DNA of 64,000 bases from Candidatus Moraniibacteriota bacterium. GTDB taxonomy: Bacteria; Patescibacteriota; Minisyncoccia; Moranbacterales; UBA1568. The notes under the pieces were generated by a model. That model searched no databases. It was not told where the DNA came from and saw nothing but the letters and a program-made list of their open reading frames with translations. Below are positions 3,364 through 55,982 of the stretch, piece after piece. The DNA is taken from positions 181,047 through 245,046 of the forward strand of contig JAHFOO010000001.1 of NCBI GenBank assembly GCA_023261645.1, given 5' to 3'. Positions within the stretch are counted from its first letter, which is position 1. Every line of letters begins with the position of its first letter. The position numbers and the translations under genes are program-made.

Positions 3364-3512
3364 CCCCGACACCAATTGAGCTTTAATTCTTGGAAGTCAG
3401 CGGTTTTTTCGTGAATATTCCTATTTTTTAGGCATGTAGAAATGCTTCATTTCTATCGTGCTGAAGCTCAATTGGTGTTGGGGTTGACAGGATTAAACCT
3501 ATTAGGTAATAT
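3364..3512 (+). promoter_or_regulatory. 20-bp inverted repeat (CCCCGACACCAATTGAGCTT ... AAGCTCAATTGGTGTTGGGG) abutting a consensus sigma-70 promoter (TTGACA, 17 bp, TAATAT) for the str operon
   Basis: Arms at 3364-3383 and 3464-3483; -35 at 3484-3489 and -10 at 3507-3512. The same architecture recurs upstream of tuf at 7442-7557. Confidence 0.65.
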
Positions 3513-3609
3513 AGATTGTACGGAAAAGCAAAGGCTTTTTCTATTTTATTGCAAGATGAATTTCGTCTTTTCCCTAGATTCTAAATTCAACATTCTAAAT
3601 TCAATTTTT

Positions 3610-4029
3610 GTGGCAACGATCAACCAGCTCATCAAACACCCTCGTACAACGGCTTCCAAGAAGTCGAAGTCTCCTGCGATGACCTATTCTATCAATAGCG
3701 TCAAAAACCGTAATACATTTCATGACAGTCCGTTCAAACGAGGTGTCTGTATCAAGGTGTCGACGACTACTCCGAAGAAGCCGAACTCAGCTTTGCGGAA
3801 AATCGCTCGTGTACGTTTGACGAACGGTATGGAAGTGACCGCGTATATCCCAGGGGAAGGTCATAACCTCCAGGAACACTCCATCGTTATGATTCGCGGT
3901 GGGCGAGTGAAGGATCTTCCAGGTGTGCGTTATCATATCGTCCGAGGTATTTTCGATGCAGCGGGTGTAGCAGCTCGAAAGCAGAGCCGATCAAAATATG
4001 GTGTGAAGAGAGACAAGAAGAAAGACTAA
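3610..4029 (+). CDS. rpsL: 30S ribosomal protein S12
   Basis: (V/M)[11 protein letters not shown] ... [59 protein letters not shown]. Start assigned to GTG 3610 to match the conserved S12 N-terminus; ATG 3556 is an alternative. The upstream part of ORF 3442 overlaps the promoter and is unlikely to be coding. Confidence 0.9.
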
Positions 4030-44159: not shown

Positions 44160-45143
44160 ATGAACCTTTTTGAGGGCATACGTGGTGGCCGTTTGATGAA
44201 GGCTACTGAAAGTGAAAAAACTTTCGGCGGTTCCGAGCCGTCTGTCTCCGAACAATCCGCCGAAGAAGGCAGTATCACCTTTACTGATAGACGTGGGGAT
44301 TCAGGAGAGAAGCCTGCTGTCGAGAAACCAAATGAACAGTCTCGTCCGGTAATGACAGATACGGCTCTGCGTGATTTCTTGGAAGTGGATGAAACGCAAC
44401 TGAAAGAGTTGGAAACCTCCATTGTTCGAGAATTTTTGATAATTTCTGAAGAACTGGATAAATGGAGTGAGACTCTCGAGAAAAAGGATGAGAGAACTCT
44501 TTACAATAAACTCTATGAGGAGATTGAAAGAAAGAGAATCGAATGGAATACTCTCAATGACAAGCCTCTTGAACCAGGAGAACAGAAAGACGCCGTGACC
44601 GAAAAGATTCGTTTACTTAGCGTGTTCGAAGATCTTCGCTTGATTGTAAACACGATGCCTCCTGTTTTGCGAGAAGCCATCACGAAGGCACAGGGAAAAG
44701 ATATGACCGAAGCACCGAATATGGATTCCGGGACTCCTCTTGTAGAAAAAAAGGAAACAGTCGTTGGAACGACCGAGGAAAATGATCATCTATCCGACGA
44801 GGCAATCGATGGCGCGAGAGAGAAGAAAGAACTGTATGATTTTTTGAATCAGCCGAAAGGACGAGAGACGGTTGATATGCTTGGAGATTTGATTACTGCT
44901 GAATGGCAGGCATTTGATCAGAAGGTCTCTGGAGAAGTATTGGATAAAGATGTCTTTGTTTCACGAAATGAGAGAGCCAGACTATGGCGGATGTTTTTTT
45001 TGCCACAAATGAAAGCAATGGTGACGGAGTATCTGGAGAGGTATTCTGCGGTACCGAGAGGGGACAGCAACAAGATATTCAGGGCGCTCATAATGAATCT
45101 GGAGGAATCAGCTGCCAGGGATACAATAAAAAAATATGACTGA
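44160..45143 (+). CDS. hypothetical acidic soluble protein (327 aa), first gene of a five-gene operon
   Basis: Long ORF with no TM segment and no recognisable motif; 8-nt overlap (ATGACTGA) with the next gene. Confidence 0.6.
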   Translation: MNLFEGIRGGRLMKATESEKTFGGSEPSVSEQSAEEGSITFTDRRGDSGEKPAVEKPNEQSRPVMTDTALRDFLEVDETQLKELETSIVREFLIISEELDKWSETLEKKDERTLYNKLYEEIERKRIEWNTLNDKPLEPGEQKDAVTEKIRLLSVFEDLRLIVNTMPPVLREAITKAQGKDMTEAPNMDSGTPLVEKKETVVGTTEENDHLSDEAIDGAREKKELYDFLNQPKGRETVDMLGDLITAEWQAFDQKVSGEVLDKDVFVSRNERARLWRMFFLPQMKAMVTEYLERYSAVPRGDSNKIFRALIMNLEESAARDTIKKYD

Positions 45144-48100
45144 ACCAAAGAAACCACTACCGTATTTGGATAGGGCTGAGGGTGAAAAAATCGCTCAGAG
45201 ATTGGTGGCGCCTATGGTAAAGCGTGTCAGACATCAGCTCGGTCTCGATATACCTCGGGAGGAACTGCCAAAAAAGCAGGGGCTCGTCGAGAAAACAACT
45301 GTTGCTACGGAAACACGGACAGTACACTCTCAAACACCGGCAGTCAAGGTTGAGGTGACAACAAAAATTACTCAGAACTTTCCGGCAGGCAAAGATGTTG
45401 ATGATAGCCGTATAAGAAGCCCTTTCAATTCGAAAAGAAGCAATGATAAGAATACGCTCAAAACGCAACAAGAAGAAGAGAACAAACGAGCCGGAGCAGT
45501 TACTCCGGTCGATACAGAACAAAGGATCGATCCTGTGAGAGTCACTGAATCGGAACGAAAGCAGATACCGATACAAGAGGAATCAGAAGATCACCGAATG
45601 AAAGCGTTCGTGGAGAGTGTCTCCGACGGAGAACTCCTGATCTTGATGAATGAGAACGGAAACAAAGCGTATTATAGACGGAGTGGTGGTGATCTGGTGG
45701 GAAGAAATGACAGTACTGTGAAGACAGCATCCGCTTGGAAAAGACATCAGAATGGATGGACATTGGCAGAGAGCGATGTCAAGATCGTGCCGAAAGAAAT
45801 TCCAACAAAGCAAGATGTAAAAGCGCCTTTTTCGGTTGCTCATAGTGCTGACGGTGCTTATGATGAAAATACCGAAGAAGACTATGCTTCTGGAAAAGTT
45901 TTCGCCGATCAATATTTGGAGCTCAATCCACCTCGAGCCGAGGCGGGAATGAAACGAGATAACGTTGCAGAAGAAGTAAAAACGATTGATGAGAAAACTT
46001 CCGAACAGTACGAAGAACTTTTTCTGGGAGATATGTGGGTTGCCAAAAATTCAGATGGGAGTGAAAAACGGATCTTAATCACTGCTTTCCTGGGATATGG
46101 AATGGTAGATATACGAAAAGGTGCCGATGTTTCGAAGTTACGCGAGGAATTGCAGGGGGACAGGATTGCGGATAATATCACTGCCGGAACTATTGACCTG
46201 GAGGTACTGCGAAATACTTTGCGTGAAGACGGATACACTCGTGAAGATCGTGGTAGCAAGAGTGAAAGAGATTTTTCCGAAACGCAGGAAGTTGATCGAG
46301 TGCATCTACCAGAGGATCCTGAACAGCAAAAAATAGATGATCTTCGTATTTTGGTGGGAGAGTTTCGTTCTGCGTATGTCAAAGAAGATATCGAAAGGAC
46401 GACTACCTGGAAGAAGCTAAGGAGCATACTCGGCATAGAAAGGGACAAAAAAAAAGGTGAATATCAGATAGCGTATGAAGAAGCATTACAAAATCTTCGA
46501 GATGCTGAGATGGAGGCATTACGAAATGAGGTGTCTCCCAATCAGGAACAGCAACGAGGGAAAGCTGAACAATTATTGCGTTATTATAAATTGGACGAGG
46601 CAGTCAATCTTATCGGTGAACGTACTCAATATAAGGCAGAAAATCAGAGTTTTCCTGAGAAAATAATAGATTCATTGGGTGCTTTGGGTCGTGCTTATAA
46701 CCGTATTCCATTGAAGCAAAAACTTCTGATAGCAGGGGCATTGGCAGGCGTTACGATTGCGACAGCACTGTCTGGTGGGAGCGGAACAGCTCTTGGAGCG
46801 ATGACTTTTGTTTCTGTGATACGGAAAGTCGCCAGTGGAGCGGGGACGGCAGTCGGTACAGAGGCACTTTTGGAAAGTTTCGGAGAGAGAGGTCGGATAA
46901 CAAAGGCAGAAAAAGAAATACAAGAACAACTCGAGACACTACCAAATCTTGATGCTTTGAGCGCCTTTCTCGAAAAAGATATCGCTTCACTCAATGGAAA
47001 ATTACAGAATGAAAAACGAGCCAAGACATGGCGTAAAATGGGGGCTGTAGGAGTCGGTTGGCTGGTCGGTTCTGGCTGGCTGACGCAGGTAGCGATGGAT
47101 CACTTCGGCGGGAATGAGGCAGTCGACTGGACGAAGAGTCATATTGTGGATGCTCTTCATGGATCTGAAGTCCACCCTGTAAATATTCCGATACCAGCTG
47201 AACCGAACCCTTTCATACCCATTGAGACCCAACCGATAGTGAAGCCGGATATGATAAGTGATATGATTGGTCAGGATTATGTGGTCCAAAAGGGCGATTC
47301 AGTATGGAAAATAGCAGGGAGAGTGGCGGACACGATGAAACTCGAAGGAGCGGAGAAAACACATTTCATCGATGCCTTGAAAGATCAATATGGAGATGTT
47401 CGGTTGAAAGCGGGAGAAACTATCAATTTCTCAGATCATGGAATAAACAAAGAATTCGTCGAAGGGGCTCTTGCGAATACCAAAGTGTTATCGCCGGAAC
47501 AACTCGCTTCCATCGCTTCTCATGATGTGAAAATAGCGGAATATATCACAGGACATCCTAATGTTACACTTACGGATGCCAAAGTAGATGAAATTCTGCA
47601 GAGCAGTCTTACAAACCAATCTGACACGATTGGAACAACGGATGGAGGCGGTTTTTCGGGAACTGATACCACGATAGATCAAGGAATGAACCTATCTTCA
47701 AGTGCAGAGCAAGCGATACAAGAGAATATCGCTTTGACGGATCCGAAAGCCTACCTGATGGAGCATCCGGAAGATTTCAGTAGATTCAATACGACTTTGG
47801 GACGAATCCGGATGAATATCTTCACAATGAACGGAGGAGAAACCGGTGTACCAACAGAATATGATTATACCGTCAGTGGGCAGAAACTCGGTGCGACAAA
47901 AATATCCGATGTATTGAGAGATATGAATGGTTTCAAAAATGAAAATCTGCGTTATGGGTATGACAGAACGCTGAATCCGCTCCATTATGATCAGATGAAA
48001 GAACTAGTGAGATTTACCGAAGCCTCCGAGAAAGCTTTTGGTGTACAATTTTCTCAGGTAGAAGCCTCCGAGAGCATCGATCATTATACCAGGCGGATGG

Positions 48101-48153
48101 CGACAGCGGTTCTTCGTACAGGCAAAGAGATAAAAGGATTCTTTAAACCATAA
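45136..48153 (+). CDS. large hypothetical protein (1005 aa) with central Gly/Ala-rich membrane-embedded segments and a LysM-like domain near residue 715
   Basis: YVVQKGDSVWKIAG....LKAGETINF resembles the LysM peptidoglycan-binding fold. Hydrophobic segments LLIAGALAGVTIATALSGG and AVGVGWLVGSGWLTQVAM. Confidence 0.65.
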   Translation: MTEPKKPLPYLDRAEGEKIAQRLVAPMVKRVRHQLGLDIPREELPKKQGLVEKTTVATETRTVHSQTPAVKVEVTTKITQNFPAGKDVDDSRIRSPFNSKRSNDKNTLKTQQEEENKRAGAVTPVDTEQRIDPVRVTESERKQIPIQEESEDHRMKAFVESVSDGELLILMNENGNKAYYRRSGGDLVGRNDSTVKTASAWKRHQNGWTLAESDVKIVPKEIPTKQDVKAPFSVAHSADGAYDENTEEDYASGKVFADQYLELNPPRAEAGMKRDNVAEEVKTIDEKTSEQYEELFLGDMWVAKNSDGSEKRILITAFLGYGMVDIRKGADVSKLREELQGDRIADNITAGTIDLEVLRNTLREDGYTREDRGSKSERDFSETQEVDRVHLPEDPEQQKIDDLRILVGEFRSAYVKEDIERTTTWKKLRSILGIERDKKKGEYQIAYEEALQNLRDAEMEALRNEVSPNQEQQRGKAEQLLRYYKLDEAVNLIGERTQYKAENQSFPEKIIDSLGALGRAYNRIPLKQKLLIAGALAGVTIATALSGGSGTALGAMTFVSVIRKVASGAGTAVGTEALLESFGERGRITKAEKEIQEQLETLPNLDALSAFLEKDIASLNGKLQNEKRAKTWRKMGAVGVGWLVGSGWLTQVAMDHFGGNEAVDWTKSHIVDALHGSEVHPVNIPIPAEPNPFIPIETQPIVKPDMISDMIGQDYVVQKGDSVWKIAGRVADTMKLEGAEKTHFIDALKDQYGDVRLKAGETINFSDHGINKEFVEGALANTKVLSPEQLASIASHDVKIAEYITGHPNVTLTDAKVDEILQSSLTNQSDTIGTTDGGGFSGTDTTIDQGMNLSSSAEQAIQENIALTDPKAYLMEHPEDFSRFNTTLGRIRMNIFTMNGGETGVPTEYDYTVSGQKLGATKISDVLRDMNGFKNENLRYGYDRTLNPLHYDQMKELVRFTEASEKAFGVQFSQVEASESIDHYTRRMATAVLRTGKEIKGFFKP

Positions 48154-48173: not shown

Positions 48174-48479
48174 ATGGCACTTGATCAAGAAGCACTCAAA
48201 AAAGAACTTATCGAAGCGTTTCATTTGGAAGGTGTTCCGGCAGACAAGCAAGAAGAGCTTCTTTCCAAGATAGGAGAAGCACTTCTTAAGCGGATTTTTC
48301 TCGAAACGATGGAAAAAATGGGGGACGAAAATGTGAAAGAGTATGAAGAACTGCTCGACAAAGAAGCGAAGCAAGAGGAACTGGAAGCGTTTTTCGAAAG
48401 CAAGATTCCAGGGTACAATATCTTTGTTCGTGGTGTGGTGACGAAATTCAAAGAAGAGTTGGCAGAAGGAGCGATGTAA
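48174..48479 (+). CDS. small acidic helical hypothetical protein (101 aa)
   Basis: ORF in operon context; short gaps to both neighbours. Confidence 0.5.
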   Translation: MALDQEALKKELIEAFHLEGVPADKQEELLSKIGEALLKRIFLETMEKMGDENVKEYEELLDKEAKQEELEAFFESKIPGYNIFVRGVVTKFKEELAEGAM

Positions 48480-48498: not shown

Positions 48499-48933
48499 AT
48501 GGCGGATGAAAAAATTGTAGGAGGAGAAGGCGGTGGTATTGTCGGTCAAGAAAGTATCTCCCCGATACAGGAAGAGAACGAGAGGCAATCAGGAATCTCT
48601 CCAGAACAAGGAGGGGAAGTGAAAGTCGAAGGGGCACAAGAACATATTGAAGGAAAATACAATGAAATTCTTTCAAAAGTGATACCTCAAACGACACCGA
48701 CTGACCAGTCTTCCGATGATCATCTTCTTGATGCGAAGAATATCGGCGCCACCTTAGATGAGGAGAGCAAGATTCAGAAGCTCGTCAATCTGGCCGAAGT
48801 CAGAGGTGTCGTCTATGCCGTCAAAGTCGCCCGTTCTTTGCAGGACTATTATGCACTTGATCGGATGCATGATGAATTGGTGGACAGACTGTATGATGGA
48901 CTTTTGGCGAAAGGTCTTATCAAAAAAGACTGA
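48499..48933 (+). CDS. hypothetical protein (144 aa)
   Basis: ORF in operon context. Confidence 0.5.
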   Translation: MADEKIVGGEGGGIVGQESISPIQEENERQSGISPEQGGEVKVEGAQEHIEGKYNEILSKVIPQTTPTDQSSDDHLLDAKNIGATLDEESKIQKLVNLAEVRGVVYAVKVARSLQDYYALDRMHDELVDRLYDGLLAKGLIKKD

Positions 48934-48975: not shown

Positions 48976-51474
48976 ATGATAGACTTCGATTTCAATGCTA
49001 TTTTTGTCCCGCTCACCTGGATGTTCGCGTCCGTTTCGATTTTGAGCGGGGTGTTTCTTGTCATTCGGAGTTTCCTCCGTTTTCGTTATCAGGTGAATCA
49101 ATCCGTAAATATGGATTTGGAAATGATTCGTGTGACACGGAAAGATGTTTCCGAAGGAGGACAACAGCAACAATCAAGTGCGGAAGTATGGAAGGAAGAG
49201 ATATTGGCGATGGAGCAATTGCTCTCATCTCTCACAACACTCAAACCGAGAGGCAATTTTTTGAGAAGTCTTTTTTTTGATACACCGACTATCGTCTTTG
49301 AAATCGCCAATCCGTCTTCGAGTGAAGAGATCTTTTTTTATCTTTCCATTCCGAAGCGTTTCCGTGAAAATGCAGAGAAACAGGTGCACAGCTTCTTCCC
49401 TCACGCGGTAATCGAGAAAGTAACGGATTACACTATTTTCTCTCCGGCGAGTCATACAGCCGTATCGGTGCTGGATCTGGCACACGGATACGCTCTTCCT
49501 CTTCGTACATATCGTACGGTGGATATTGATCCATTGAATGAAATATCGAATGCTCTCAGTAAATTGAATACCATTGAAGAAGGTGCTGCTATCCAAATTC
49601 TCCTTGCGCGGACGAATACGAGTTGGCGCAGTGAAGGAAAACGTATCGCTCAGAAGATGCAGGAAGGGAAACGCTTGAAGGATGCGAAGAATAATTCAGT
49701 TCTCTATGAAGTTTTTTCTACCATAGGAAAAGGTATGCTTGATATTTTGAGAGGCTCAAAGAAGGACAATAATATTTCGGATGAGAAAAAACAAGTGAAT
49801 CTGACTCCAGAAGAGCAGGAATTGGTGAAATCTATCGATCAGAAAGCCAATAAAGGGGCTTTTCGAGCCAATATTCGTCTGATCGCATCGGGAGCGACAC
49901 AGGAACGGGCGGAAGAGATTCTCGGACAAATGGAGAATGCGTTCGGGCAGTTTGAAAATCCTGAAGTGAATAATTTTCGTATTAAAAGACGTATCAAGGA
50001 AAAACAGTCTGTGTATGATTTCATCTTTCGAAATTTTGATGATGAAACGCAGATGATACTTACAGTGGAAGAGCTGGCGAGTATTTTTCATTTCCCGATA
50101 TCGACAACTGCTACACCAAAAATAAAGTGGTTGAAATCCGGAGCAGCTCCGCCACCGGTAAATATTCCGAAAGACGGTTTGCTTCTCGGATACAATGATT
50201 ATCGTGGAATGAAGACAGACATCCGTATCACGGAGAACGATCGGAGGCGACATATGTATGTCATCGGACAAACGGGAGTAGGGAAATCGGTCTTCTTGCA
50301 AGAGATGGCCAAAAAAGATGCCGCCTCAGGGAAAGGTTTCTGTTTCATCGATCCGCACGGTGATGCTATCGAAGATATTCTGACGTCCATTCCGAAAGAG
50401 CGTGCAGAGGACGTGATTTTGTTCGATCCGTCTGATACCGAGCGTCCGATCGGGCTCAATATGCTCGAATACGATCCAGCTCATCCGGAGCAGAAAACAT
50501 TTGTTATCAATGAAATGATCGGTATCTTCGATCAACTGTATGATTTGAAAGCAACCGGAGGTCCGATGTTCGAGCAGTATATGCGTAATGCGATGCTTCT
50601 TATAATGGAAGATCCTGACAGCGGATCGACCTTGATGGAAATTTCTAAGGTATTGGCAGATGAAGATTTCCGTAAATACAAGCTTTCCAAATGCAACAAC
50701 CCGATTGCCTACGATTTCTGGACGAAAGAAGCGGAGAAGGCAGGTGGTGAAGCCGCTCTTGCCAATATGGTGCCATACATCACATCTAAGCTCACGACGT
50801 TCATCTCAAACGATATGATGCGTCCGATTATCGCTCAGCAGAAGAGCACGCTCAACTTCCGTGAGATTATGGATGGAAAAAAGATCCTTCTTGTCAATCT
50901 CTCGAAAGGCAAGATTGGTGAAATCAATGCAAGACTTCTCGGAATGGTGATTGTCGGGAAAATCTTGATGGCAGCTCTTTCTCGTACGGACACGCCGGAA
51001 GATGAACGGACGGACTTCTATCTCTATATGGACGAATTCCAGAATGTCACGACGAACTCTATCGCGCAGATTCTCTCGGAGGCTCGCAAGTATCGGTTGG
51101 TACTGACGATGGCACATCAATTCATTGCCCAATTGAAAGAGGAGATTGCCAAAGCAGTATTCGGCAATGTCGGATCACTGGTATCTTTTCGTGTCGGTTC
51201 AGAAGACGCTGAATTTTTGGAAAAACAGTTTCTGCCGGTGTTTACTGCGCGTGACCTGATAAATGTGGACAATCGAAATTGTTTTGCTCGACTTTTGTTG
51301 AACAATGAACTCACCAAGCCGTTCAATATGAAAACCTATGCCCCGACCCACGGGAGCCAGGAGGTGGCCAATGCCCTCAAAGAACTCTCACGTCTTCGAT
51401 ATGGTCGTGATTCTGCCATCGTCAATCGCGAGATTATGAGCAGGATGAAACTTGCTGAGAAGCCCACTTTATAG
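48976..51474 (+). CDS. membrane-anchored P-loop ATPase resembling type IV secretion/conjugation ATPases (VirB4/TrbE or VirD4/TraG; AAA-like DUF87/TraG-D_C)
   Basis: N-terminal TM helix; Walker A VIGQTGVGKS at about residue 425; Walker B-like YLYMDEFQN followed by ARKYRLVLTMAHQFIAQL, the pattern seen in the VirB4/VirD4 families. Confidence 0.65.
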   Translation: MIDFDFNAIFVPLTWMFASVSILSGVFLVIRSFLRFRYQVNQSVNMDLEMIRVTRKDVSEGGQQQQSSAEVWKEEILAMEQLLSSLTTLKPRGNFLRSLFFDTPTIVFEIANPSSSEEIFFYLSIPKRFRENAEKQVHSFFPHAVIEKVTDYTIFSPASHTAVSVLDLAHGYALPLRTYRTVDIDPLNEISNALSKLNTIEEGAAIQILLARTNTSWRSEGKRIAQKMQEGKRLKDAKNNSVLYEVFSTIGKGMLDILRGSKKDNNISDEKKQVNLTPEEQELVKSIDQKANKGAFRANIRLIASGATQERAEEILGQMENAFGQFENPEVNNFRIKRRIKEKQSVYDFIFRNFDDETQMILTVEELASIFHFPISTTATPKIKWLKSGAAPPPVNIPKDGLLLGYNDYRGMKTDIRITENDRRRHMYVIGQTGVGKSVFLQEMAKKDAASGKGFCFIDPHGDAIEDILTSIPKERAEDVILFDPSDTERPIGLNMLEYDPAHPEQKTFVINEMIGIFDQLYDLKATGGPMFEQYMRNAMLLIMEDPDSGSTLMEISKVLADEDFRKYKLSKCNNPIAYDFWTKEAEKAGGEAALANMVPYITSKLTTFISNDMMRPIIAQQKSTLNFREIMDGKKILLVNLSKGKIGEINARLLGMVIVGKILMAALSRTDTPEDERTDFYLYMDEFQNVTTNSIAQILSEARKYRLVLTMAHQFIAQLKEEIAKAVFGNVGSLVSFRVGSEDAEFLEKQFLPVFTARDLINVDNRNCFARLLLNNELTKPFNMKTYAPTHGSQEVANALKELSRLRYGRDSAIVNREIMSRMKLAEKPTL

Positions 51475-51513: not shown

Positions 51514-54006
51514 CTATGGTTCGAGATTGAATTTGAAAGAGAGGAGAGAATCTGACGTTGTCAGTAAGAATTCGCTTGTTTTCTCGTTTACGGTAATGCT
51601 TTTGGCCGAAGCGAATTGTTCGGAGAAATATTGAGCCAAGAGCATGCCATCTTGATTCCAGATGAGAACACGTTTGTTCTCCGCATCGAGAGCGTAGACA
51701 TTCGTGAGTCCGGGGTGAGTGAAAAGGCTTGTCAGAGAAAGTGGCGTAGTCGGAGATTCGAAATTTTTTATGAATTGGCCACGGAAGAATGCTGAAACAG
51801 TCGCTTTGTTCGGAGCGAGAAAAAGAGTTTCATTGATAGCCATCTGAGCCGTGTCTTCGATATCTACCGTATTTTTGAGCCAGGCTGATCCTGATTTGAA
51901 TCCACCCTCTGCTCGAGGAAAGCGATAAATCTGATCGGTGACGCTATCGAGGACATAGAGATAAGTGAGATAGGTGCCGATATCTTTCACGGTGGCATTT
52001 TCGGGCAACGAGAGGGTATTTTTCGTGAATGTATGATTGACAGGAGCGAATGCAAAAAGTTCATTTGTATCAGTATAGACAAAGATGAGACGTAAATCAT
52101 CCATCGGAGAAGCAAACTGTATTGTTCCGGCTTCGGGCGGTAACGAATAACGTTTGTTATCGTTTGTGTTTTGAATGGAGGTGGCGGTGACGAGGTATGT
52201 TTCATTGCCAAGAAGTATGGAAGTGACAAGAGCATCCTGCTCGGTGGCGATGACGAGAGGTGATGTTTCGAATACGTGAGCATTCTTTTCAGTTTCCAGG
52301 GGGAACGCTGATGTTTCAATCGAAGGTTGAGACGTTTCTGTAAGCGGAGGAGTATTTTTCGAAAATGATCGTGTCAATAGGACAAATCCTGTGATGAAAA
52401 GAACAAAAGAGAGGAAACTCAAGATGAGCGTGCGTCTTTGATAGCGTGAAGAAAGTGTTCTCAAAAAGGAAAAGAATGACTTGGTGACGGTTTTTGTTTG
52501 AGATGCTATGACATCCCAAACCATATGAAAGGAAGAGGGTATTTTTTTGGATACTTTTTGGGCAAGAGCAGATATGTTTGAATTTTCCGTCTGAAATCGC
52601 TTGATAGGAGAGGTTTCGACAGTGACTTGTGTTACGGTCGTGGCATTTTTTCGGTAGAAACGAGCGAGTTTCTCTTTCATAAAATCAGGGATATCTTCGT
52701 TCTTCTCTTCTGGGAGAGAAGAAACAGTTTCCGTTCTTTTCTCTGTGAAGGTCAATCGGGATTCGATGGTTTCTTCATATGGGGATGTCATAATCGCATC
52801 GGGGAGGACTTCCTTTTTGGTCTTCTGTGATATTTTCACCGAGCGAAGAGAAAAAAGAAGAGAAGAGACTTTGGATGCCGATGCGGTTGTTCCTTTCTGC
52901 CATTGCTTACGGAGAAGACGTGTTGTTTTTCGTGTTATGACAGCGCTCTTCTCTGCCAGAGTGTCAGAAAGGAGTAGTCCGTATTTTTTTCCTTTCCGTA
53001 TAAGTTTTTCTTGAGATGCAAAAAATGAGCTGAAAATATGGAGTAAATCCTGAGCTGAAAGTTTTGCTCGTTCGAGAATATGATGTTCAGGCGCTTCTCC
53101 TCTTGTCTCTCCCTGGATGAAAATATGTCCGGTTTTGGGGTCGACATACTCCTTCGGCTTTGAATGTTCTTCCTCTCTTTTTGGCAGTTGATCCGTATCC
53201 TTTGGTTCGACGTGCGAATCGAAAGCTTCCTTGCTGAAGATATTCTCGATGACTGCAGCGACTCTTCTTGTCTCTTTGTGCGGTTCTGGCATCGGAGCGC
53301 TTTCTTTGAGATCGACGATGAGAGAGCCTCCCATATTGAGTTCATTTACGAGGACTGTCCGTAGGAATTGAGCGAATTGATCCTTGTCCATACGGAGTGC
53401 GTTTTTTTCGAGGGCCTCGATTGAGAGCAGGTCGAGAAGTTCCGGTGAAGTGAGAATGATCTTATCTTCCAGCATCAGATGACCGCTTGAAATTTCAACG
53501 AATGTTTTGATGGGATGGATATTGGATTCAGGAGAGGCCAAGCCAGTGCTGATTTCTGAGATTTTTCCGCCTCGCAAGAGAAGAATCTCTGATTTTCCGG
53601 TGACAGAGAAATGAAGGTTATTTTTCTCCAGTACGCCAAGTGCTCCGTGGAAATTGCCCAGCCATGCGATATTGCCGTGTCTGACAAGTTCTGCGAGAGC
53701 GAGATTGACTTTGTGCAGAGCTGCTTCGAAACTCTCGATAGCGCCACGTCGTCCGTTGCTGAAGTACTCCTTTTTTGCGACAGATGCCAGGAAGTTGACG
53801 ATATAAGCTGAATCTTCACTTTGCTCCGCAATTTCAAAAACACCGATCAGAGAGCCAAGCGGACTTTTGGCGATGTTTTCACCACTGTAATTGAAAACCT
53901 TGACGAACGGTTCCACAGCACGTCCGTTTGCCACAAGAATTTCTGTTATGATCTTTTCCAATTCAACAGATCCCTTGATTTTTTCTTGGCGTTTTTTGTC
54001 CAGCAT
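51514..54006 (-). CDS. large membrane protein (830 aa): N-terminal cytoplasmic PP2C/SpoIIE-like domain (apparently catalytically degenerate), one TM helix near residue 530, C-terminal extracytoplasmic domain
   Basis: GVFEIAEQSEDSAY, GKSEILLLRGGKISEIS and EDKIILTSPELLDLL segments parallel PP2C motifs but lack the metal-binding Asp/Gly residues; TM RTLILSFLSFVLFITGFVLLT. Confidence 0.6.
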   Translation of the reverse strand: MLDKKRQEKIKGSVELEKIITEILVANGRAVEPFVKVFNYSGENIAKSPLGSLIGVFEIAEQSEDSAYIVNFLASVAKKEYFSNGRRGAIESFEAALHKVNLALAELVRHGNIAWLGNFHGALGVLEKNNLHFSVTGKSEILLLRGGKISEISTGLASPESNIHPIKTFVEISSGHLMLEDKIILTSPELLDLLSIEALEKNALRMDKDQFAQFLRTVLVNELNMGGSLIVDLKESAPMPEPHKETRRVAAVIENIFSKEAFDSHVEPKDTDQLPKREEEHSKPKEYVDPKTGHIFIQGETRGEAPEHHILERAKLSAQDLLHIFSSFFASQEKLIRKGKKYGLLLSDTLAEKSAVITRKTTRLLRKQWQKGTTASASKVSSLLFSLRSVKISQKTKKEVLPDAIMTSPYEETIESRLTFTEKRTETVSSLPEEKNEDIPDFMKEKLARFYRKNATTVTQVTVETSPIKRFQTENSNISALAQKVSKKIPSSFHMVWDVIASQTKTVTKSFFSFLRTLSSRYQRRTLILSFLSFVLFITGFVLLTRSFSKNTPPLTETSQPSIETSAFPLETEKNAHVFETSPLVIATEQDALVTSILLGNETYLVTATSIQNTNDNKRYSLPPEAGTIQFASPMDDLRLIFVYTDTNELFAFAPVNHTFTKNTLSLPENATVKDIGTYLTYLYVLDSVTDQIYRFPRAEGGFKSGSAWLKNTVDIEDTAQMAINETLFLAPNKATVSAFFRGQFIKNFESPTTPLSLTSLFTHPGLTNVYALDAENKRVLIWNQDGMLLAQYFSEQFASAKSITVNEKTSEFLLTTSDSLLSFKFNLEP

Positions 54007-54267
54007 ACTTTTTTGTTACCAAACCTTGTGCATCAGCGGATAAAGGAATAAATGAAGCAAACACCCGCATCTGTCCGAAGCCTCCGGAAAAGGTGAATAT
54101 GCTTTATTATACCACATCTACGGCCAGGAAGCTTTCTTCAAAACCAGGTGGTATTCCGTGCGAAAATGCTTGGGCAAGCGCTTTTGACTTTTCTTTCCTT
54201 TTTTCCTATACTTGAGGGAAGATGGAATGTCTTCATTGTTGGTATATTTCGTAACGATTGTAATCCT

Positions 54268-54873
54268 ATGTCCTTAGTTCTCTTTGATTCCTTGTTCGGA
54301 TCGAAAGCTCGTGCCCGTCTCATCCGTTTTTTTCTTCTCAATCCCGGGGTAGAATTTGGAACAGCGACTGTCGCCGAAAAGACGCTTATCTCAAAAATAG
54401 AAACGACACGCGAACTCGCCCGTCTTGCCAAGATGAGATTTGTCATTGAACACTCTCGTAAAGGGAGGAAACATTTTATTGTGAATGAGGATTTCCCTTT
54501 TCATACGGAGTTGAAAAGTCTTGTTTCGAAACTCAATGTACACGCGCAATCACAGGTATTTCGTAAGGTGAAAGTGATCGGAGAGGTGAAACTGATTCTT
54601 ATCAGTGGACTGTTCATCAACTACGCGAAAAGCAAAGTAGATATGATTCTCGTCGTGAATAATCTCAATCGGACCAAACTCAAGCATGCTATCACGCTTT
54701 TGGAAGCGGAAGTAGGCAAAGAGATCCGATTTGTATTGATGAACAGCGAAGAATTGCACTATCGTTTGAATATGCTTGATCGTTTCTTCATAGAATTCCT
54801 TGAGGGGCCATATGAAGAAGTATCAAATAAGGTGCCCGAACTCAAACGTTTCATTTCCGGATTGAAGAAGTAG
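54268..54873 (+). CDS. hypothetical protein with N-terminal winged-helix-like segment, possible C-terminal nucleotidyltransferase-like fold
   Basis: [18 protein letters not shown] resembles the recognition-helix regions of small wHTH regulators. ATG 54268 chosen over the upstream TM-like extension. Assignment is weak. Confidence 0.45.
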
Positions 54874-54896: not shown

Positions 54897-55982
54897 ATGA
54901 CTTCGTGGATAATGATCATTCTTCTGTTTTTGGTAGCCAGTCTCGTCTTGTGGCTGGTTTTTTCTTTGCGTGGACGAGAATCATCCGGAGAGGCTTCCAA
55001 ACTAGAAATGGAAAATATGAGCCGGCGTTTCGATACGGAACTTCATTCAGTTGCACATGCTTTCAATCAGCAACTCGCGAATTTTCAGCACACGCTGGAT
55101 AACCGTTTGGCGGATAATGGCAAGCGTCTCGATGATCGTCTCGATACGGCTGCCCGATCATATGCGGATGTACAGAAAGGGTTGGAGCAGATGCGCCATT
55201 CGAGCGAAAAAATACTTGAAGTCGGCAAAGAGGTTGCGTCGCTTCAAGAAATTTTGAAGGCTCCGAAAATCCGTGGCGGTTTCGGCGAATTGATGCTTCA
55301 GGATCTGCTTTCTCAGATGTTGCCCAAAGAGAACTTTGCCTTGCAGTATATGTTCAAGAGCGGTGAAGTCGTAGATGCTATTATCAAGCTCAAAGGAGGT
55401 ATGGTGAGCGTCGATTCAAAATTCCCTTTGGAAAATTTCAAGAAAATCATCACTGCCAAAACTGATGACGAGAAACGCATAGCACGGAAGCAATTCTATG
55501 CTGATGTGAAAAAACATGTCGATGCCATCGCCAACAAATACATCGTTCCCGAAGAAGGAACGCTTGATTTCGCGCTTATGTATATCCCGGCCGAGAATGT
55601 TTATTATGAGATTATCATCAAGGATGATGATGAACAGGGCCTGCTCGATTATCTGACACAGAAGCGCATTATGCCGGTATCACCGAATTCCTTTTACGCA
55701 TATATGAGAACGATCCTTTTTGGATTGCAGGGATTACAGATCGAGAAGAGAGCAAAAGAAATCATGGGGCAATTGGAGAAATTGGCTCGTGAACACGAGA
55801 AGTTCGAACAGGAATTCGACATACTTGGAAGTCATATCGGCAATGCTCATAAGAAATATGATGAAGCAGAAAAGCGTTTATTCAAAGTAACGAATCAACT
55901 CGAACACGCGCGTCTCGGAGTAGAACATGAAACCCCTGAATCTCTGCCAGCTCCTTTGGAGAAAGATTTTTCTTCTGTGTAA
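54897..55982 (+). CDS. rmuC: DNA recombination protein RmuC
   Basis: N-terminal TM, long coiled-coil, C-terminal [13 protein letters not shown] RmuC-domain motif. Confidence 0.8.

Follow-up and report, generated by a model that had tools for sequence, protein, structure and literature searches.

A long ATPase on a Candidatus Moraniibacteriota chromosome, probably an orphan type IV coupling protein, with a predicted VirB4-like N-domain

Type IV coupling proteins (T4CPs) of the TrwB/VirD4/TraG/TraD type, among them R388 TrwB (1E9R/1E9S), DotL and Cag-beta, have a P-loop motor of the FtsK/HerA superfamily with an all-alpha insertion. A second ATPase of type IV secretion systems (T4SSs), VirB4 (R388 TrwK, 7O42/7O43/8RTD), has a motor of about 400 aa that follows an N-domain of about the same length. 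Patescibacteria, which depend on host cells, account for much of the diversity of bacteria. In the only species tested so far their T4SS proved essential; its gene cluster contains no recognizable coupling protein or relaxase, and orphan VirD4-like genes are found in almost every Patescibacteria genome (PMC12102498, PMC10633639). We have analysed a long ATPase gene in a stretch of 64,000 nucleotides from a Candidatus Moraniibacteriota bacterium (GCA_023261645.1, contig JAHFOO010000001.1, positions 181,047 to 245,046 of the forward strand; ‘the window’ in what follows). The gene lies on the plus strand at 48976–51474 of the window. We consider it probable that it is a chromosomal orphan member of a long T4CP (VirD4/TrwB/TraG-type) ATPase family of the candidate phyla radiation (CPR)/Patescibacteria. 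The sequence data support a motor of T4CP type that is membrane-associated and putatively competent in catalysis, carries an N-domain of predicted VirB4-like fold and has a partner of its own.

The locus resembles each of the described systems in part. It shares with TrwB the Walker A, Walker B, R/K and Q motifs, and the long disordered C-terminal tails of some relatives are a further likeness to TrwB-type T4CPs. In contrast to these, the family has one transmembrane helix or none and an extra N-domain of 355 aa, and the window gene lies on the chromosome, away from any relaxase or T4SS gene. With VirB4 it has the two-domain layout in common, and its N-domain is predicted to fold like the N-terminal half of TrwK, but there is no N-domain sequence similarity, no PF03135 and no VirB3, VirB6 or VirB8 neighbour. 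The full-length architecture is found again in long DUF87/T4CP-like ATPases of Bacillaceae plasmids and phages (WP_345805471.1, CP-51 gp91, phage G gp156, PHROG 5156). Those genes adjoin Replic_Relax, and the plasmid one shares an operon with TcpC, TcpE and a VirB4-like ATPase; the CPR genes do not have these neighbours. The orphan VirD4-type homologues of Patescibacteria surveyed by Quinonero-Coronel et al. (2025, PMC12102498) belong to the same phylum and likewise lie far from virB4. Neither that survey nor the transposon sequencing (Tn-seq) study of Wang et al. (2023, PMC10633639) describes the N-domain, its VirB4-like fold or the partner gene.

The ATPase gene and its motor domain

The open reading frame (ORF) starts with ATG and encodes 832 aa. 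It is far beyond chance because it has thousands of homologues, up to 90% identical. Its only N-terminal hydrophobic segment, residues 8–36 (48997–49083; AIFVPLTWMFASVSILSGVFLVIRSFLRF; Kyte-Doolittle 1.9), is modelled within one long helix (residues 6–44) and is predicted to be a single membrane anchor. An alpha/beta N-domain (residues 45–400, 49108–50175) and a P-loop nucleotide-binding motor domain of T4CP type (residues 402–790, 50179–51345) follow. The motor carries Walker A (GQTGVGKS, residues 431–438, 50266–50289), Walker B (YLYMDEFQ, residues 682–689, 51019–51042, with DEFQ at 686–689) and an AHQFIAQL motif (residues 713–720, 51112–51135) that aligns with GLQSTSQL of TrwB. A sequence-only reading of this DNA had described the same ORF with its N-terminal helix, DEFQ and QFIAQL, all of which we confirm; its Walker A is present as well, a little downstream of the residue 425 then estimated. 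K437, D686, E687, R704, K705, Q715 and Q719 are invariant in an alignment of 65 sequences that spans relatives down to 39% identity, and so are the Walker A glycines G431, G434 and G436. This is the pattern that an active ATPase under selection would be expected to show.

Pfam families of the T4CP kind matched residues 416–748 above their cut-offs: TraG-D_C (PF12696) with 28.1 (cut-off 22), TrwB_AAD_bind (PF10412) with 27.2 (20.5) and T4SS-DNA_transf (PF02534) with 22.7 (20.1). DUF87 (PF01935), HerA_C (14 bits, cut-off 22) and FtsK_SpoIIIE (13.4, cut-off 24) stayed below threshold, and CagE_TrbE_VirB (PF03135) gave no match in the window ATPase. The same picture emerged from 34 diverse family members. 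TrwB_AAD_bind and TraG-D_C were each found in 33, DUF87 in 32, T4SS-DNA_transf in 19, AAA_10 in seven (weakly) and P-loop_TraG in two; CagE_TrbE_VirB was found in none. True VirB4 proteins, by comparison, carry PF03135, PF19044 and PF27097. When the family profile was run against PDB sequences it found TrwB (5e-8), DotL (4e-5) and HerA (0.03), and no VirB4 at E ≤ 1, although TrwK is present in the PDB.

Pairwise profile alignment separated the two candidate families further. With the single R388 TrwB sequence hhalign gave 96% (E 3e-9) over 270 columns, from ahead of Walker A to the Q motif (residues 417–719) and through the all-alpha region of TrwB. R388 TrwK reached 11%, in the P-loop region only (61 columns), and a Gram-positive AAA_10 VirB4-like protein 3.9%, again in the P-loop region only; an alignment of 41 VirB4 sequences reached 83% (E 1e-5), confined to the motor domain. 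Judged by sequence, the motor domain is coupling-protein-like (T4CP, of the VirD4/TrwB kind) and is more distant from VirB4 than from TrwB. The window ATPase belongs to the type IV secretion ATPase superfamily, as had been proposed: TrwB, DotL, Cag-beta and TrwK/VirB4 led the profile and structure matches, ahead of HerA. FtsK/SpoIIIE pumps and HerA helicases, given as examples of proteins whose precedence with full-length coverage would have spoken against this placement, were not the best matches. The window ATPase has neither the HAS-barrel/HerA_C architecture nor the FtsK architecture of alpha, beta and gamma domains with four transmembrane helices.

The N-domain, plasmid and phage relatives, and the VirB4 alternative

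A full-length AlphaFold2 model calculated from the 65-sequence alignment had a mean predicted local distance difference test score (pLDDT) of 85.8 and a predicted template modelling score (pTM) of 0.71. It consists of a helix (residues 6–44), an alpha/beta domain (46–400), the P-loop domain (402–790) and two C-terminal helices. Six helices (residues 506–610) are inserted between core strands 480–483 and 637–641. The model thereby places an all-alpha insertion (residues ~506–610, 50491–50805) where TrwB has its all-alpha domain, a T4CP feature. In a Foldseek search of the PDB the full-length model found TrwK/VirB4 first (E 1.3e-15, ~940 columns, both domains aligned); the template modelling (TM) score of 0.29 to full-length TrwK is low because the orientation of the domains differs. 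TrwB was next (E 3.5e-12, TM score 0.66 normalized to TrwB, rmsd (root-mean-square deviation) 4.8), followed by HerA (4d2i, E 9e-12) and Cag-beta.

Residues 45–400 were also modelled alone (pLDDT 82.8, pTM 0.82). At E ≤ 1e-3 this model matched only TrwK/VirB4 in the PDB (14 chains, best E 1.2e-6, TM score 0.44, probability 1.0), and neither HerA nor FtsK; the following match had E 0.026 and probability 0.15. In BFVD the N-domain matched phage G gp156 at E 1e-18 and a phage JL protein at 7e-16, with TM scores of 0.62–0.63. The predicted structures suggest that the N-domain of ~355 aa has the fold of the VirB4 N-terminal domain. By sequence, the earlier remark that residues 40–400 hold no recognizable motif is correct: a copy of Pfam without PF26449 gave no match there. 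The assignment to PF26449/DUF8128 comes from the precomputed annotation of homologues, the window protein itself not having been scored directly; homologues 71–90% identical over their full length, ~830 aa long, carry PF26449 followed by PF10412/PF12696/PF01935. We found no paper on PF26449/DUF8128.

Relatives with the complete architecture occur outside CPR bacteria, in phages and on plasmids. PHROG 5156, annotated ‘unknown function’, matches residues 102–827 (E 4e-89). Of the 58 phage records in which tblastn found a homologue, 54 are of Bacillus phages (CP-51, JL, Shanette, SP-10, Goe26, Tsamsa, Thrax4 and phage G are among the phages), and 22 matches covered at least 80% of the protein. 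The same search found homologues on 238 plasmids, full-length mainly in Bacillaceae and in some actinomycetes and haloarchaea; many other plasmids match the motor domain only. The Bacillaceae plasmid and phage relatives are only ~21–24% identical to the window ATPase and have no transmembrane helix. A 27.5-kb B. subtilis plasmid (NZ_CP154917) encodes an 885-aa homologue, WP_345805471.1, that hhalign aligned across both domains (100%, E 4e-45, 653 columns). It is the first gene of an operon that continues with Replic_Relax, TcpC, TcpE, an 847-aa AAA_10 VirB4-like ATPase and a 743-aa conjugal transfer protein. In phages CP-51 (gp91) and Thrax4, Replic_Relax directly follows the homologue and ParM-type partition genes precede it. 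In these relatives the ATPase is thus in the position of a coupling protein, because it stands beside a putative relaxase and, on the plasmid, coexists with a separate VirB4-like ATPase; from these contexts the architecture is that of a ‘long T4CP’ and not of VirB4. We found no published study of the long Bacillaceae plasmid and phage ATPases.

Some further observations concern these elements. Large Bacillus phages carry a plasmid-like module of a ParM-type partition gene, a long T4CP-like ATPase and Replic_Relax (CP-51, 60745–76955; Thrax4, where the module also holds an M23 peptidase). The ATPase/Replic_Relax pair also stands at the head of a Tcp-type conjugation operon on small B. subtilis plasmids classed by MOB-suite as non-mobilizable. 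Proteins of ~390–580 aa on IMG/VR contigs (loci L083–L104) and on a Sulfitobacter plasmid (L115) are essentially motor only, with Walker A at residues 14–116 and no N-terminal transmembrane helix. They are 29–41% identical to residues ~400–830 and so closer to the window ATPase than are the full-length Bacillus relatives. The context of the Sulfitobacter relative, which has the ATPase domain only, is uninformative.

The sequence-only reading had favoured VirB4, possibly as a VirB3-VirB4 fusion, that is, an ATPase of T4SS assembly or pilus biogenesis anchored by a fused VirB3-like helix. What stands of this is the architecture: an N-domain of ~400 aa precedes a motor of similar size, and TrwK/VirB4 is both the first Foldseek match of the full-length model and the only PDB match of the N-domain at E ≤ 1e-3. 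Membership of the VirB4 family does not follow. PF03135 is missing throughout the 34 members, in which AAA_10 is rare and weak, while the T4CP families are nearly always present; the hhalign values for the VirB4 queries fall short of that for TrwB, and the N-domain profile reached only 1.5% against VirB4. The plasmid homologue shares its operon with a separate VirB4-like ATPase. No VirB3-, VirB6- or VirB8-type gene lies nearby in the window or in 81 CPR loci. The ~45 residues ahead of the N-domain are too few for VirB3, and Patescibacteria have their own VirB4 clade, in which no VirB3-VirB4 fusions have been reported (PMC12102498). The VirB4 reading of the window ATPase is largely refuted, and we regard it as very unlikely.

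The family in CPR/Patescibacteria and a small partner gene

The window gene is typical of its CPR family, which is very large and, though catalogued in databases, uncharacterized. Among more than 3,600 matches, the best 120 are ~830 aa long and 71–90% identical, with the nearest homologue at 90%; those with a source name are mostly labelled Moranbacteria. An exhaustive HMMER scan of cluster representatives at 50% identity returned 5,621 clusters at E < 1e-30, with full-length matches at 33–55% identity. GTDB species genomes hold at least 599 loci. Nearly all of the best 80 bear the title either of a Patescibacteria lineage (Moran-, Uhr-, Falkow-, Komeili-, Nomura-, Taylor- and Wolfebacteria, Paceibacterota and others) or of a generic or evidently mislabelled metagenome-assembled genome (MAG). 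Several MAGs titled ‘uncultured Bdellovibrionales’, ‘Gammaproteobacteria’ or ‘Candidatus Saccharibacteria’ (e.g. L002–L005, L016, L018) encode ATPases 47–78% identical to that of the window, and their labels look unreliable. Some members reach 1,200–2,000 aa (P0170, P0179, P0183, P0185, P0190, P0195, P0196) through C-terminal tails that are Pro/Ala-rich or Ser/Gln-rich, look disordered and contain no Pfam domains.

The family is near-universal in CPR/Patescibacteria, chromosomal, and located away from T4SS or relaxase genes. In phmmer searches the Replic_Relax, VirB4-like, TcpC and TcpE proteins of the plasmid and the phages had no match, either in the window or in 81 CPR loci taken with ~10 kb of flank, whereas the plasmid protein of the T4CP slot matched 79 ORFs in the same set, CPR ATPases among them. 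Linkage to relaxase, DNA-processing or channel genes is seen in the plasmid and phage relatives and not in the CPR loci. This orphan context agrees with the survey of Quinonero-Coronel et al., who counted 5,713 VirD4-type homologues, spread over 2,918 of the 3,035 Patescibacteria genomes, with no more than 148 lying near virB4; they found VirB4 in 2,417 genomes and raised exaptation as a possibility (PMC12102498).

What surrounds the gene differs by lineage and is housekeeping in each. It may have secY-adk-map before it and ndk and a beta-CASP nuclease after it, a small ORF before and dnaX after, or, in an abundant CPR lineage, gyrB-gyrA directly after. These contexts, with holB, ftsQ and rmuC near the window gene, suggest another explanation: a housekeeping DNA motor of FtsK/HerA-like function (chromosome handling, repair or DNA uptake) that is independent of any T4SS and merely descends from T4CPs. 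The larger number of Patescibacteria genomes with T4CP homologues (2,918) than with VirB4 (2,417), the exaptation raised by the authors of that survey (PMC12102498) and the presence of HerA among the structural matches point the same way. Against it, the HerA and FtsK profile matches are weaker than those to T4CPs, gene neighbourhood is weak evidence in tiny CPR genomes, and no nuclease or recombinase partner adjoins the CPR ATPase in a conserved manner. We consider such a motor unlikely. Simple replacement of FtsK is rejected, as S. epibionticum has a canonical, essential FtsK (SEML1_0096). In the lineage with gyrB-gyrA directly after the DUF8128 ATPase (L113/L114; P0513, 994 aa, of a 336-member cluster), which is very often sampled in ENA metagenomes, the genes before the ATPase encode a polytopic membrane protein of 121 aa and a soluble protein of 210 aa.

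A gene for a protein of 144 aa, here called u144 (48499–48933, plus strand), ends 42 nt upstream of the ATPase gene. The protein has a disordered N-terminal half and a conserved C-terminal helical module of ~55 residues (KG..., D121, H124, L127), and gave no Pfam or PDB match. Its profile, searched with domain envelopes, matched at 55 of 82 loci, a figure that includes two fragments at contig edges. In about half it is a separate gene of 112–150 aa just before the ATPase; in the remaining matches it forms the N-terminal part of the ATPase itself, in fusion proteins of ~910–970 aa. The N-terminal helix is present in all 46 unfused CPR ATPases of these loci and absent from all 29 fused ones. Independently gene-called cluster representatives behave alike, with 17 fused proteins all lacking the helix and 83 unfused ones having it. 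Fusion of u144 strictly replaces the transmembrane helix.

The u144 protein is small and evolves fast, and its fusion to the ATPase in some genomes is good evidence that the two are physical partners. T4CPs commonly work with accessory factors (PMC12857230). Small partners encoded by, or working with, a T4CP include CagZ with Cag-beta (8DOL), DotM/DotN/IcmSW with DotL and TraM with TraD, and Cag-beta/CagZ is among the structural matches of the motor. By analogy u144 may be an adaptor or regulator; no similarity between its family and the small T4CP accessory proteins was detectable. A different upstream family (‘up2’, 150–195 aa, all members mutually homologous) takes the place in 13 loci of Uhr-, Falkow- and Komeilibacteria type (within L016–L029 and at L055, L076 and L078; e.g. 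L025:782–1288 and L017:9459–9974). It has a Pro/Glu-rich N-terminal half, a conserved C-terminal ‘WL..IPGVN.FFLEQEAKIKT’ motif and no Pfam match. Homology of u144 and up2 was rejected (hhalign 0.1%), and a third type of upstream gene, in L113, matches neither.

Possible role and genomic setting

Several points weigh against a coupling protein. The membrane domain of canonical T4CPs has two helices, and these proteins lack a VirB4-like N-domain; here there is one helix in the window ATPase and none in its fused and Bacillus relatives. The best NCBIfam matches are TraD/VirD4-like models, all far under their cut-offs. The likeness of the N-domain to VirB4 is one of predicted structure, at a TM score of 0.44 and to effectively one PDB protein (TrwK); at the sequence level hhalign of the N-domain failed against the single TrwK sequence, the 41-sequence VirB4 alignment and the Gram-positive VirB4-like protein. 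With no relaxase, VirB4 or channel gene in the 64 kb of the window or within ~10 kb in the 81 loci, a coupling role can be put forward only conditionally. A further point comes from S. epibionticum, for which the Tn-seq tables of Wang et al. (2023, PMC10633639) contain two long genes of T4CP-like kind. SEML1_0293 (921 aa) has PF10412, PF12696 and PF01935 at positions matching those in the window ATPase and is non-essential. If it is the orthologue, its dispensability argues against the window ATPase being the motor of the essential T4SS. SEML1_0142 (1,019 aa, a ‘TraM recognition domain’ ATPase) has no Pfam matches, is essential at all time points and lies 13 nt downstream of an essential ORF of 139 aa, SEML1_0141; neither locus tag of this pair appears in the main text of the paper (PMC10633639). 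By the descriptions in the tables, the Pfam coordinates favour SEML1_0293 as the orthologue, whereas the small upstream ORF favours SEML1_0142.

We nevertheless prefer the orphan long T4CP, and suggest a mechanism on the model of its relatives. The ATPase would form a ring on the cytoplasmic side of the membrane, as other T4SS ATPases of the FtsK/HerA superfamily do, tethered by its own helix or, in relatives without one, by the fused partner domain. ATP hydrolysis, involving Walker A and B, the invariant R704/K705 and Q715, would serve to receive a polymer substrate and push it towards a membrane channel, and the u144 protein would act as adaptor or regulator in the manner of the small accessory proteins of other T4CPs. 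DNA or nucleoprotein is the most likely ancestral substrate because the relatives on a Bacillus plasmid and in Bacillus phages lie directly upstream of Replic_Relax. The ATPase may feed a CPR T4SS encoded elsewhere or may have been put to another use.

A more ambitious proposal, to which we give little credence at present, is that the DUF8128 long T4CPs survive as a VirB4/VirD4 intermediate, a coupling-type motor that kept the N-terminal docking domain of VirB4. CPR bacteria would have domesticated one from a monoderm mobile element and turned it into a near-universal housekeeping translocase with a fast-evolving adaptor, which might be the substrate receptor that the essential relaxase-less T4SS lacks, or a motor for uptake of host-derived polymers. 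Orphan motors now offer handles for testing: the predicted VirB4-like N-domain, the partner in its fused and separate forms, and the relatives that occupy the slot beside Replic_Relax. DUF8128 and PHROG 5156 gain a working annotation, and the family has a bearing on how VirB4 and VirD4 diverged.

By gene content, the window belongs to the core chromosome of a CPR bacterium, with rpsL, fusA, tuf, rplC, rplD and rplB, then secY, adk and map; tpi, fba and gap; murD, murA and mreB; glycosyltransferases; holB and ftsQ; two PMT_2 glycosyltransferases; and rmuC, a MraY-like gene, prfA and prmC. The ATPase gene ends a tight plus-strand string in which a 327-aa ORF, a 1005-aa ORF, DUF5663, the 144-aa ORF and the ATPase are separated by −8, 20, 19 and 42 nt.

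One might ask whether the gene is instead the working coupling protein of a mobile element integrated in the window (an integrative and conjugative element, prophage or plasmid remnant), given that plasmids of Bacillus, actinomycetes and haloarchaea carry relatives of it, as do Bacillus phages and IMG/VR contigs. Searches of the 64-kb window found no VirB4, relaxase, integrase, Tcp-type or other T4SS gene. GC content is flat across the window, at 0.43–0.45 around the ATPase gene, with no shift in composition, and the only tRNA gene (1913–1984) is 47 kb away. The same string of genes is conserved in a complete 1.2-Mb Moranbacteria chromosome, and the family is conserved at 40–90% identity across CPR classes in housekeeping contexts. 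The mobile-element reading is refuted for practical purposes; we hold it to be extremely improbable, and keep to the chromosomal orphan.

The other genes of the string are lineage-specific. The first encodes the 327-aa protein (44160–45143) and overlaps the next by 8 nt; the second (45136–48153) encodes a 1005-aa single-pass membrane protein with a transmembrane helix at residues 530–548 and a weak LysM-like motif; the DUF5663 gene (48174–48479, 101 aa) adjoins the ATPase only in Moranbacteria-type loci. All three are on the plus strand and gave no Pfam or PDB match indicative of function. A convergent ORF of 830 aa (51514–54006, minus strand) has one transmembrane helix (residues 524–549) and no Pfam or PDB match. 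Moranbacteria-type loci keep it close to the ATPase, along with rmuC (54897–55982) and an ORF of 241 aa (54148–54873). The 327-aa, 1005-aa, DUF5663, 830-aa and 241-aa neighbours are conserved only in loci of this type, and none has a Pfam or PDB match pointing to secretion. Scans for promoters and terminators gave background level only.

Two genes near the start of the window have long N-termini as listed from the first start codon. The best Pfam match of the rpsL ORF (3442–4029, 195 aa from the first start) begins only at residue 89. That of the ndk ORF (1192–1797, 201 aa) begins at residue 88, at profile position 53 of 135, and a second matching stretch was reported besides it. The N-terminal surplus of both ORFs could reflect mis-set starts or CPR-specific extensions.

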